A stretch of 16,601 nt of DNA, from UHGV virus genome UHGV-0088365, one strand, 5' to 3'. Positions 3,368 to 14,013 of the stretch are shown piece by piece. The notes beneath the pieces were generated by a model. The model did not search any database. It saw only the letters and a list, made by a program, of their open reading frames with translations, and had not been told where the DNA came from. The stretch's first letter is position 1. Each line of letters begins with the position of its first letter. A program made the position numbers and the translations under genes. This DNA is from a virus.

Positions 3368-3408
3368 GACCTCCTGATATAGCGTCTGAAAAAAGTATCT
3401 TCATTTTG

Positions 3409-3438
3409 TGTTAGAAAATCAATTTTGATTTTCTAACA
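3409..3438. promoter_or_regulatory. Perfect 30-bp palindrome TGTTAGAAAATCAATTTTGATTTTCTAACA in the divergent intergenic region; putative operator
   Basis: Read directly: the two 14-nt arms TGTTAGAAAATCAA and TTGATTTTCTAACA are exact reverse complements with a 2-nt centre (TT). It lies between the leftward operon start (3367) and the Ref-like gene start (3484). Related half-sites occur at 4060-4069 and in the 13973-14013 inverted repeat. Confidence 0.6.
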
Positions 3439-3483
3439 TGTTTGATCAACCATAGCGGCTATGTAGACAAACCGGGTATTTCT

Positions 3484-4059: not shown

Positions 4060-4075
4060 TTTTCTAACATTTTAA
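4056..4075. promoter_or_regulatory. Single copy of the TTTTCTAACA half-site immediately after the Ref-like stop codon
   Basis: TTTTCTAACA at 4060-4069 is identical to the right arm of the 3409-3438 palindrome; no convincing partner arm is seen upstream. Confidence 0.35.
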
Positions 4076-4390
4076 GTTGAATTATAAATTTCTCCGATGT
4101 ACATTCACTACCGATTGGCACACCGGTCAACTTTTTGAGACAAACTGTATAGTTTTTCGTATTATTGCCGCCGCCATACCTATGGCGGTGCAATATAGGT
4201 GGCTGAAAAGCCCCCGTTGACTCACGGTGTTCCAGCCTTTATTGCGCCGCCGCCAGACCGTGGAACAGTCGATGGCGGCTCCGAAAGCAAGGAGTCACTA
4301 CACTATGAACAGCTACTGTCTTTTCCCATCACTCGTTATCCGCCACTCACGCGATAATCTGCATTCTTTACTCGCGCTGGGGGTGTCAAA

Positions 4391-4558
4391 ATGACCGTTC
4401 GCTACCTCAACTTTCAAATCCAGAACATCACTGGCGGTTGCTATGACTGGTTTGTCACTCTCGGAAAAGAAGTGATCACCGGGAAGCTGGATGAAGTGAA
4501 AGCTAAAGCAATGGCCTACGCCTGCAAGCAAGCCCGGAAGAAATCCGCCAAAGCATAA
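4391..4558 (+). CDS. Hypothetical small basic protein, 55 aa, possibly coupled to a 29-aa leader ORF (4305-4394)
   Basis: ATG at 4391 with GGGGGTG upstream; translation MTVRYLNFQIQNITGGCYDWFVTLGKEVITGKLDEVKAKAMAYACKQARKKSAKA. A 29-aa ORF at 4305-4394 (AAGGAG upstream) ends in an ATGA overlap with this start. Both are below the ORF-track size cutoff; the antisense track ORF 4313..4531 looks less plausible. Confidence 0.3.
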   Translation: MTVRYLNFQIQNITGGCYDWFVTLGKEVITGKLDEVKAKAMAYACKQARKKSAKA

Positions 4559-4762
4559 AATACTGACTTTTGCGCCCTGGCCTTATCGTGGGGTATATTT
4601 CTACGGCACCTTAGAAAAACGGGTGCCGGGATTGGAACCTCACGCGGTAGCTCCTTAACTTAGTCAAAGGAGGCTGCCAATATCGCTACTATCCCCACCC
4701 CAACTCATTCTGAATTTATCTGGCGTTTCTATTCCTGCCAAAAACACCTGTATATCTGCGTC

Positions 4763-5140
4763 ATGGCTGCAACCGAAGCAGAAGCTCGTTCATACCTTCC
4801 TGAAGAACCCTGCATTTTTGCCGCACGCTTCACTCTTGATGCGATGGAGATCCTAAATTACTGGAATCTTCTTGTTTGGTGCTTTTCCAGCTTTGTTCAG
4901 GAAAGACTTTATAACTTTTATTGGGTATTTGTAGTGATGCTGATACTGGCATTCCTCACAGCCGGAATTGGCCCGTGGATTGCCTCATTTATCTGGGCGT
5001 TCATGTATAATAAATATTTCACCGTAAATAAGATAAAACAAGGCTTCATTTTTGCTGGTTCTCACACAGAAAATGAGTTGGCTGCTAGCAAGCTAGGATT
5101 GTCATTAAATCAAAACAACTGCAAAACTATTACCGAGTAA
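4763..5140 (+). CDS. Putative small inner-membrane protein (two predicted TM helices); start uncertain (4763 or 4844)
   Basis: ORF-track ORF; hydrophobic segments LLVWCFSSFV and YWVFVVMLILAFLTAGIGPWIASFIWAFM. The body is AT-rich relative to flanks. No clear Shine-Dalgarno at either candidate ATG. Confidence 0.45.
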   Translation: MAATEAEARSYLPEEPCIFAARFTLDAMEILNYWNLLVWCFSSFVQERLYNFYWVFVVMLILAFLTAGIGPWIASFIWAFMYNKYFTVNKIKQGFIFAGSHTENELAASKLGLSLNQNNCKTITE

Positions 5141-6013: not shown

Positions 6014-6305
6014 TTCATTAACTCCATACTTTACCATCTTAGCCGCGAGCGCGGTCCCTAAAACCCTTAACTTCACTACACCGTCCTTCATGTAAACAAA
6101 ATGAGGTTTTATGTTATAAAAACAATCAACTTCATCAACATGATTTAGGCCAAGTTTCGGTCAAATAATAAAATCCTCAAAAAGTGGTTGACACTATTCT
6201 GGAAATCACAAACTGCACATAATCCATCGCGCTAACGGCTCCCGTTGAAGGTTCTTTTGACGATTAACTTTCAGCCGAAGCGCGGTAGGGAGTCATAACG
6301 CCAAA

Positions 6306-8900: not shown

Positions 8901-9619
8901 GAAAGATCAATTCCAGTATTATCAAACAAACTGGAAATATCAGACACCAATTTATTAAAATGCTTGTCATCATTATAGAATGATGTGCTTTTTATAGCGA
9001 CTATAAAATCACATAAATCTTGCGGAGATTCAATGCTAACCCCCTTATTTTTATATAGTTCAATAATACTGCCAACATCAGTATGCAATAGTTTTATCGC
9101 GCCACAAATTTCTCGCTGTTTCGTAACCAAGTCATTAAGTTTATTTTCATTTTCATCTAAGATTTGTTTTGAATATTTAGCGTCATTGGTTGCTTGATTT
9201 AACTTTGTTTTCTTTCTTTGCAATTCTATTCTTTTATCATAATCAGCAACTTCATCTAAATATCTTATTTCAGTGTATAATTTACTTGTTAGCTTAGATA
9301 TCTTCAGTGTGAGAACAGGAGCTAACACAGATGCAAATACTCCATAAATAAATGGGATTACAACGTGATAAACCCACGGGGATACAATCCAATTATCAAT
9401 GAACGGGACATTACCACCAACAGAAACAATAGATAATGTATATAGGATGTCGTCCTTTGACTTTAATATAATTAAAATATCCTTCCAGTTAAAAATTAGA
9501 AAAGAAATGACAACATATGCAAAAACCTTGTTAAATATTTTATCTTTTATTATTTCAGAAAATGATTTTAGTTCTGTTTCATTTATAGACGGATTATCTT
9601 TAACTTTTTCTGACATCAT
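8891..9619 (-). CDS. AT-rich membrane protein (two predicted TM helices) with coiled-coil-rich C-terminal domain, 242 aa; candidate abortive-infection or exclusion-type effector
   Basis: ORF-track ORF; ATGATG start at 9619 with AGGA 7 nt upstream. Predicted TM segments FAYVVISFLIFNW and WVYHVVIPFIYGVFASVLAPVLTL; K/E/N-rich helical C-terminus. Markedly AT-rich. No family recognised. Confidence 0.75.
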   Translation of the reverse strand: MMSEKVKDNPSINETELKSFSEIIKDKIFNKVFAYVVISFLIFNWKDILIILKSKDDILYTLSIVSVGGNVPFIDNWIVSPWVYHVVIPFIYGVFASVLAPVLTLKISKLTSKLYTEIRYLDEVADYDKRIELQRKKTKLNQATNDAKYSKQILDENENKLNDLVTKQREICGAIKLLHTDVGSIIELYKNKGVSIESPQDLCDFIVAIKSTSFYNDDKHFNKLVSDISSLFDNTGIDLSKK

Positions 9620-13972: not shown

Positions 13973-14013
13973 ATTTGTGTTAGATAATTAACGCATATTT
14001 TCTAACACAAATG
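13973..14013. promoter_or_regulatory. 13-bp perfect inverted repeat CATTTGTGTTAGA-N15-TCTAACACAAATG directly upstream of rdgC; related to the 3409-3438 palindrome
   Basis: Read directly; arms at 13973-13985 and 14001-14013. It shares the core TGTTAGA / TCTAACA with the two sites at 3409-3438 and 4060-4069. No T-run follows, so it does not look like an intrinsic terminator. Confidence 0.55.

Follow-up and report, generated by a model that had tools for sequence, protein, structure and literature searches.

Divergent C4-family RNA gene and wrecked c4-icd module in a probable immI-type immunity region of a D6-like phage-plasmid

The 16,601-nucleotide (nt) virus sequence UHGV-0088365, referred to below as the window, contains between positions 4060 and 4762 a palindrome-rich stretch that an initial annotation, made from the sequence alone, took for a regulatory RNA, leader or antitermination-type region rather than ordinary intergenic DNA. 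This stretch is indeed regulatory and belongs to a kind of region that is already known. It is probably the immI-type immunity region of a D6-like phage-plasmid of the P1 family, with one apparently working and one wrecked module. The first module (module I, ~4060-4558) carries a divergent C4-type antisense RNA gene, named c4-I here, and a translated leader that is coupled to a conserved gene for a protein of 55 amino acids (aa), and the second (module II, ~4570-4869) has suffered deletions. The stretch is 99.9% identical to ~89-kb E. coli plasmids and 97.6% identical to phage D6, a P1-family phage-plasmid, and in the D6 and plasmid records the corresponding sequence sits between ref and an Icd-like gene. 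P1-family phage-plasmids, which commonly carry resistance genes in both E. coli and Salmonella, have their superinfection immunity and induction behaviour set by C4-type RNAs. Family resemblance, folds, covariation, target complementarity, conservation, coding signals and deletions were observed or computed directly, and the coordinates of the features are collected in Table 1. Instead of the lack of conservation in homologous regions that would speak against a regulatory role, we found the region conserved in dozens of D6-like plasmids.

The identity of c4-I follows from covariance models and from its fold. When the whole window was searched against Rfam, nothing reached the gathering level; in E-value mode, however, c4-I matched the C4 family (RF01695) over the full model length with 37.7 bits (E = 2.5e-5). 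Canonical C4 copies in the relatives score 70-77 bits on this model. A covariance model of our own was built from seven canonical C4 genes, i.e., those of P7 and RCS47, three D6-type c4-II variants (see below), a metagenomic relative, and the third copy of the closest plasmid. This canonical-only model gave c4-I 41.5 bits (E = 2.5e-7), and in the 119 kb searched the sole matches outside the training set were the c4-I copies in the window and its relatives, without false hits. In the resulting alignment, which is itself fitted to the model, 95.3% of the pair cells hold standard pairs and 19 of the 27 pairs show changes on both sides; none of 500 shuffles reached these values, and slid controls paired at 29-56%. 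The 80-nt core (4178-4257) folds with -35.5 kcal/mol, compared to -22.8 ± 2.8 kcal/mol for 200 dinucleotide shuffles (z = -4.47), none of which was as good. Both the minimum-energy and the centroid fold consist of a closing stem around two hairpins with a single strand 3' of the second hairpin, which is the C4 topology. By alignment to P7 c4, mature c4-I would extend from ~4184 to ~4254. The predicted 5' end (4184) has GG and the 3' side GCCGCCA, as in P7, although this is a resemblance only. A scan of IMG/VR with a degenerate c4-I pattern returned the same D6-like contigs and GC-rich chance matches only, and no member of the subfamily outside D6-like elements.

All features listed in the initial annotation were found in the sequence, give or take a base or two, and its palindromes, listed there one by one, are not independent hairpins but belong to a single known RNA fold and to the sites it targets. 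The 18-bp palindrome has two fully complementary 8-nt arms, CCGCCATA (4171-4178) and TATGGCGG (4181-4188), around a 2-nt centre, so it is present but not perfect, and it comprises the 5' flank of c4-I and the first bases of its stem. The second stem, GCCGCCA (4249-4255) and TGGCGGC (4273-4279), joins the 3' strand of the c4-I stem to a downstream complement, and there is an additional 8-nt arm pair, GCCGCCAT (4170-4177) and ATGGCGGC (4272-4279). Palindromes of this kind might be sites in the DNA itself, such as a terminator of ref, a protein-binding site or a recombination site, rather than RNA parts. A weak terminator-like hairpin with a T-run does follow ref (4113-4128), and the operator-like motif at 4060-4070 is a true candidate for a DNA site. 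However, the palindromes at 4171-4188 and 4249-4279 have no T-run and coincide exactly with stem strands of the fold matched by the C4 models, and the changes in relatives keep RNA pairing, including G-U pairs that are meaningless for duplex DNA. A role at the DNA level is therefore highly improbable.

The repeats are also related to each other. The 5' flank of c4-I (4162-4180) directly repeats the 3' stem strand (4239-4259), according to the pattern TTATTGC(C)GCCGCCGCCA(T/G)ACC, and ATGGCGG of 4182-4188 recurs at 4272-4278, so that the four strands can pair in two alternative ways. Conceivably, the GCCGCC/GGCGG repeats form a structural switch that acts in cis in the mini-ORF leader, hiding or exposing the Shine-Dalgarno sequence at 4289 with no trans-acting RNA involved. 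The two states would pair 4170-4178 with 4181-4188 plus 4236-4255 with 4273-4292, or 4184-4199 with 4236-4251. In c4-I, the 3' stem strand is indeed 75% complementary to 4273-4292 over 20 nt, reaching AAGG of the Shine-Dalgarno sequence, the minimum-energy fold of a 151-nt context uses the 4171-4188 hairpin and not the C4 stem, and in one relative (L026) each alternative helix has one compensatory change, in an alignment judged by eye. The fold of the long context is poorly defined, however, with an ensemble frequency of 0.005, whereas the C4 fold is backed by two covariance models and by family-wide covariation. Moreover, when the complementarity between the 5' leader and the 5' stem strand was assessed by shuffling in ten C4 genes, it was not significant (P = 0.02-0.35). 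This argues against a cis switch, which we consider quite improbable, and the same result led us to discard pairing between the 5' leader and the 5' stem strand as a conserved feature of C4 precursors.

The second line of evidence for c4-I as an antisense RNA is its match to a target just downstream. In P7, the loop of hairpin 2 (b') and the following single strand (a') of the RNA complement the sites b2 and a2 before icd, with b2 lying on the ribosome-binding site; a summary of the C4 mechanism is given in PMC5320573. For c4-I, ordered complements of a' and then b', each of at least 6 nt, occur only twice on the plus strand of the whole window. The first pair consists of the a2 and b2 sites given in Table 1, the latter on the Shine-Dalgarno sequence of the 29-aa leader open reading frame (ORF); the chance of finding such an ordered pair (a of at least 7 nt, b of at least 6 nt) in the local 47-nt stretch is 2.6e-4. 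The second pair (4633-4638 and 4662-4667) lies before the icd remnant of module II (P = 1.1e-3). The four elements (a', b', a2, b2) are invariant in relatives with flanks of only ~80% identity, and b2 was kept in L026 and L034 despite a 5-nt deletion right after it. L028 and L041 differ by a single U-to-G change in b', and with it the complementary stretch shared with b2 grows from 6 nt to 7 nt. On its own target, c4-I is predicted to form duplexes of -8.7 (b') and -9.5 (a') kcal/mol, compared to -14 to -15 and about -9 kcal/mol for canonical C4.

Two other pairings were considered and set aside. It is possible that c4-I took over repression at the icd site after the loss of c4-II, but this found no support; GGAAC and GTCAAAGG are the cognate sites of the common c4-II type, and the predicted duplexes at the icd-remnant sites are -5.9 and -8.1 kcal/mol for c4-I versus -14.2 and -8.8 kcal/mol for c4-II. 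Binding of the window sites by c4-III of the closest complete relative is not predicted either, and its a and b sequences are different.

Several observations weigh against a functional c4-I. Its score of 37.7 bits lies below the Rfam gathering score of 45, and its b' loop has 6 nt, compared to ~12 nt in canonical C4, with a clearly weaker predicted b' duplex. No convincing a1 and b1 sites are present upstream of c4-I; there is no c4-a1b1 or isrK match, and there is a lone 9/10 complement of a' at 4116-4125. Furthermore, the six c4-I variants taken alone show one-sided stem changes only, hence the covariation that is evident across the C4 family alignment is absent within this subfamily. Lastly, in the most divergent relative (L038) the homologue of the 55-aa gene lies directly behind the operator and promoter, without c4-I, thus c4-I is dispensable in some contexts. 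Together with the demonstrable decay of the adjoining module II, these points could mean that c4-I is a decaying, non-functional C4 duplicate, that 4060-4762 is a dead remnant, and that the 55-aa gene is constitutive or under the control of C1 only. We judge this to be unlikely, since the a', b', a2 and b2 sites and both promoter-like elements have stayed invariant or preserved their consensus while the surroundings diverged to ~80% identity, and the leader frame and its ATGA overlap have been maintained. Also, apart from one G-C and one U-A pair that are each broken in one variant, all stem changes in the six c4-I variants keep pairing, with a U.U opposition turning into C-G or U-G, and the b' change in L028 and L041 extends rather than shortens the match to b2.

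The initial annotation described the region as mostly non-coding. This holds for 4060-4304 and 4559-4681, but the 254 bp in between consist of the two mini-ORFs, one of which is a real gene. Both are present as described, with 29 and 55 codons and an ATGA overlap at 4391-4394. The start, the frame and the 4-nt overlap of the leader are kept in 13 of 16 alleles and in the 31-aa allele of L026, and nearly all alleles also agree in length, whereas the differences are mostly non-synonymous (non-synonymous divergence, dN, 0.08; synonymous divergence, dS, 0.05). Judged from this pattern, it appears to be the translation of the leader that is conserved and not its peptide product. In L028 and L041, a 61-aa Icd-like ORF takes the place of the 29-aa leader, and because of this ORF at the leader position, module I is a true paralogue of c4-icd. 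As a separate variation, leader and 55-aa gene are fused into a single 84-aa ORF in L031.

The 55-aa gene is under purifying selection, with a dN/dS of ~0.12-0.2 (for example, dN 0.063 and dS 0.52 compared to L028), and its product matches phrog_7786 (E = 1.8e-43), a family of unknown function. An AlphaFold model consists of four strands and a helix (predicted local distance difference test score, pLDDT, 86). A fold search with this model in PDB and BFVD gave no match at E ≤ 0.001, a Pfam match to DUF3319 stayed below the cutoff of that family, and among species-representative genomes no relatives were found. The family is narrow, comprising 16 clusters, all from D6-like elements of E. coli or Salmonella. 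In L039 and L040 (3001-4400), an IS200/IS605 element with TnpB and a Y1 transposase replaces the C-terminus of the gene. The 55-aa protein is a candidate for a new small phage regulator.

Upstream of c4-I, directly after the ref stop codon, lies the operator-like motif TTTTCTAACAT. With at most one mismatch, it occurs six times in the window, compared to 0.49 copies expected, and none of 200 shuffles reached six. The copies precede ref (as an inverted pair, 3408-3439), module I, a simB-like gene and another operon, and in a relative the motif also precedes a third module (module III). Based on the P7 annotation, in which C1 operators lie before c4, TTTTCTAACAT is probably the operator of the D6-type C1 repressor, which apparently had not been defined previously. 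Next to the operator lies a promoter-like sequence whose hexamers and 17-nt spacing are kept at ~80% identity, as TTGAGT/TACATT in L026 and TTGATC/TAAATT in L028. A second promoter-like element just 5' of c4-I has a predicted start near 4172, which would leave a short 5' leader; in divergent relatives GAGACA and a TAnnnT -10 sequence (TATTAT, TATGAT or TAATAT) stand at fixed spacing, with variable sequence between them. No terminator was predicted in the interval from the 55-aa gene to the IsrK-like remnant of module II.

From homology, covariation and complementarity we infer how c4-I might be transcribed, processed and act in repression, and what the 55-aa protein may do. Transcription of module I would start from the operator-adjacent promoter, the proximal promoter, or both, giving a transcript that carries c4-I followed by its own target. 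C4 RNAs are cut from a longer transcript by RNase P to ~77 nt, and c4-I would be released in the manner of P1 c4, after which the b' loop and the a' strand would pair with b2 and a2 and thereby cover the Shine-Dalgarno sequence of the leader ORF. With the leader blocked, expression of the 55-aa gene would cease as well, by way of the ATGA coupling, transcriptional polarity, or both. The antitermination suggested initially is thus replaced by antisense occlusion of a ribosome-binding site, as in P1 c4. Going one step further, c4-I, the leader and the 55-aa protein could constitute an unrecognised third antisense immunity circuit upstream of IsrK/c4-II/icd/ant, gating a small effector as well as read-through in a two-tier antisense cascade; we put this forward as a tentative and somewhat doubtful possibility. 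If it were true, the 55-aa protein would be an effector with no known fold, e.g., a mini-antirepressor or an anti-immunity protein, and the circuit would be the only one left at this locus in the lineage of the window.

Table 1. Features of the region and their coordinates in the window
Feature	Position	Strand	Basis
Operator-like motif TTTTCTAACAT directly after the ref stop codon	4060-4070	+	Motif count
All copies of TTTTCTAACAT	3408-3418 (-), 3429-3439 (+), 4060-4070 (+), 6111-6121 (-), 9606-9616 (+), 13998-14008 (+)		Motif scan, at most 1 mismatch
Promoter-like TTGAAT-17 nt-TACATT beside the operator	4077-4105	+	Read from sequence, below scan threshold; putative
Promoter-like GAGACA-17 nt-TATTAT just 5' of c4-I	4137-4165	+	Promoter scan, 9/12 matches
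c4-I, divergent C4-family antisense RNA gene	4178-4257	+	Rfam C4, canonical-C4 covariance model, fold z-score
b', c4-I hairpin-2 loop UGACUC	4218-4223	+	Fold; invariant in 6/6 c4-I variants; complements 4292-4297
a', single-stranded UGUUCCA of c4-I	4228-4234	+	Fold; invariant in variants; perfect 7-nt complement of 4261-4267
a2 target site TGGAACA	4261-4267	+	Complementarity; invariant in all relatives though the spacer to b2 varies
Leader-ORF Shine-Dalgarno AAGGAG (4289-4294) overlapped by b2 GAGTCA (4292-4297)	4289-4297	+	Complementarity
29-aa leader ORF, coupled via ATGA to the 55-aa gene	4305-4394	+	Start, frame and 4-nt overlap conserved
55-aa protein gene, phrog_7786, function unknown	4391-4558	+	Purifying selection, PHROG match
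Putative promoter TTGCGC-18 nt-TATATT	4570-4599		Inferred
5' stem-loop of truncated IsrK-like RNA (GGCACC hairpin)	4605-4628	+	Alignment to relatives, Rfam isrK
Deletion junction GATTGGAACC, merged a1/a2 sites of the lost c4-II	4630-4639	+	Alignment with 29 c4-II loci
b2 of the lost c4-II, GTCAAAGG (4663-4670), overlapping the icd Shine-Dalgarno AAGGAGG (4667-4673)	4663-4673	+	b1/b'/b2 co-vary in relatives
icd pseudogene, ATG to ATC at 4682-4684	4682-4869	+	Homology to D6 icd

Module II has suffered three losses, namely a 189-bp deletion between the a1 and a2 repeats, a mutated icd start and the deletion of the antirepressor gene, and its original layout is visible in the relatives. In 29 related loci the order is an IsrK-like RNA (5' stem, a1, b1, intrinsic terminator), a second C4 gene (c4-II), a2/b2, icd and an antirepressor gene. 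The c4-II genes are canonical C4 (73-77 bits), and they combine, in a mosaic manner, three a-types (TTGGAAC, TTGAGAC, TTGGTCT) with two b-types (GTCAAAGG, GCAAAAGG). At every c4-II locus a' agrees with both a1 and a2, and b' with both b1 and b2, and this perfect co-variation argues strongly, as evidence supplied by nature, for the pairing rule. Swaps of specificity were seen in L002, L013, L034, L004 and L038. For D6-like and RCS47-like phage-plasmids, the a- and b-types provide an existing map of the heteroimmunity groups. As an aside on annotation, a PGAP coding sequence for an 'ash family protein' falls exactly on the c4-II RNA gene (L090, 975-1094, and many relatives), hence an RNA gene seems to be systematically annotated as a small protein.

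In the window, the 5' part of the IsrK-like RNA remains as the hairpin of CGGCACC (4604-4610) and GGTGCCG (4622-4628) with an 11-nt loop, in agreement with the initial annotation. Intact IsrK-like copies in the relatives score 59-63 bits on isrK (RF01394; gathering score 50), whereas the remnant at 4606-4656, of which the 3' half and the terminator are deleted, reaches 14.5 bits (E = 2.4), below the gathering score. The 10-bp repeat GATTGGAACC flanks, in L013-type relatives, the segment that is missing from the window; at the junction 189 bp are lost, and with them the IsrK-like 3' half, the terminator and c4-II. Among complete E. coli genomes, a 111-nt query across the junction was covered to 80% or more by 82 records, taken as D6-like plasmids, and 8 of these carry the junction variant.

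Loss of c4-II goes along with loss of the icd start, which is ATC in 5/5 loci without c4-II and ATG in 29/29 loci with it. The AAGGAGG that had been described as an orphan is therefore the ribosome-binding site of the icd pseudogene; correct in the earlier description was that it has no ATG, GTG or TTG at initiation distance, and it is the single copy in the window (4667-4673). The hairpin at 4605-4627 and this AAGGAGG are thus not working parts but remnants of a module hit by the 189-bp deletion and the ATG-to-ATC change. The residual icd sequence still matches phrog_1426 (E = 5e-37), and PGAP annotates a partial Icd-like pseudogene at the corresponding place in relatives. Homology to D6 icd stops at 4869, where the C-terminus is replaced, and resumes inside D6 orf80, so that ~1.5 kb with the 3' end of icd, ant, pmgF and the 5' end of orf80 is gone. 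This deletion also gave rise to a chimeric 125-aa ORF (4763-5140), in which the icd remnant is joined to the 3' part of the D6 orf80 homologue (phrog_4915); exactly this arrangement occurs in none of the complete E. coli RefSeq records. In other deletion-variant plasmids ant was lost differently, and plasmid ptetA (NZ_CP047013.1) shows yet another variant without ant. After the loss of c4-II, unrepressed icd and ant were likely selected against. The window documents the decay of such a circuit: at every locus examined where the antisense RNA is lost, the gene it repressed has lost its start codon and the antirepressor is gone too.

Elsewhere in the closest complete relative (L044, NZ_CP029365.1, 34060-35329) there is a third module, consisting of a c4-a1b1 motif, a C4 gene (69.6 bits), icd and a Rha antirepressor gene. 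It has a distinct a/b specificity, TTTGACAG/ACTTACG, and an inverted pair of operator-like motifs upstream, and a TnpB insertion sequence lies between the module and repL.

While the logic of C4, IsrK and immI was already known, c4-I is a third, unannotated and divergent copy with its own target, since the annotations of pYU39_89, D6 and RefSeq show no RNA there. The re-annotation of the D6-like pYU39_89 lists isrK and c4 beside icd, as well as a second c4-icd-kilA set near repL, and contains no feature between ref and the 55-aa gene (PMC6799933, S1 Table). Neither the D6 GenBank record nor RefSeq annotates an RNA at the position of c4-I, although the D6 genome paper might mention it. A C4 paralogue such as c4-I, which has a target of its own but is unannotated and scores below the threshold, means that these regulators are undercounted by standard annotation with Rfam, and three antisense circuits that differ in specificity may operate in D6-like elements.

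The closest known system is immI of P1 and P7, where, according to the P7 annotation, a C1 operator is followed by the c4 antisense RNA, icd and ant. Module I shows the same order as c4-icd-ant, with a C1-type operator and promoter, an RNA with the C4 fold, an a2 site, and a b2 site placed on the ribosome-binding site of a small ORF, whose translation is coupled to that of the gene after it. The RNA itself has the same three helices and, 3' of the hairpin with b', the same unpaired a'; in some relatives (L041) an Icd-like ORF comes first, and the location corresponds as well, with c4-I lying in a D6-like element between ref and the icd remnant. In contrast to P1 and P7 c4, c4-I stays under the Rfam gathering threshold, and because its hairpin-2 loop is only 6 nt instead of ~12 nt, the b' pairing is 6 bp instead of 8-12 bp. 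Its targets are a non-conserved 29-aa leader and a 55-aa protein rather than Icd and an antirepressor of ~300 aa, clear a1/b1 sites are absent, and it stands in tandem upstream of a second, canonical c4 module, with a third module elsewhere in this plasmid type.

The reference system for the isrK family (RF01394) is the IsrK-orf45-anrP locus of Salmonella Gifsy-1 (PMC4825925). The relatives of the window resemble it in having an isrK-family RNA (5' hairpin, a1/b1, terminator) followed by a C4-type RNA that is processed, a small ORF and, coupled to it, an antirepressor gene. Module II of the window retains only the 5' hairpin, and with the terminator, c4-II, the icd start and the antirepressor gone, it cannot work as described for IsrK. 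The CI RNA of P4, with seqA and seqC, has been named as a structural relative of IsrK/SeqA (PMC4825925). It is a C4-like immunity RNA too, produced by processing, and the two short sites with which it pairs lie within its own transcript, although no match to P4 elements by sequence or model came up in this analysis. It differs in mechanism, as P4 CI brings about premature transcription termination whereas c4-I would occlude a ribosome-binding site.

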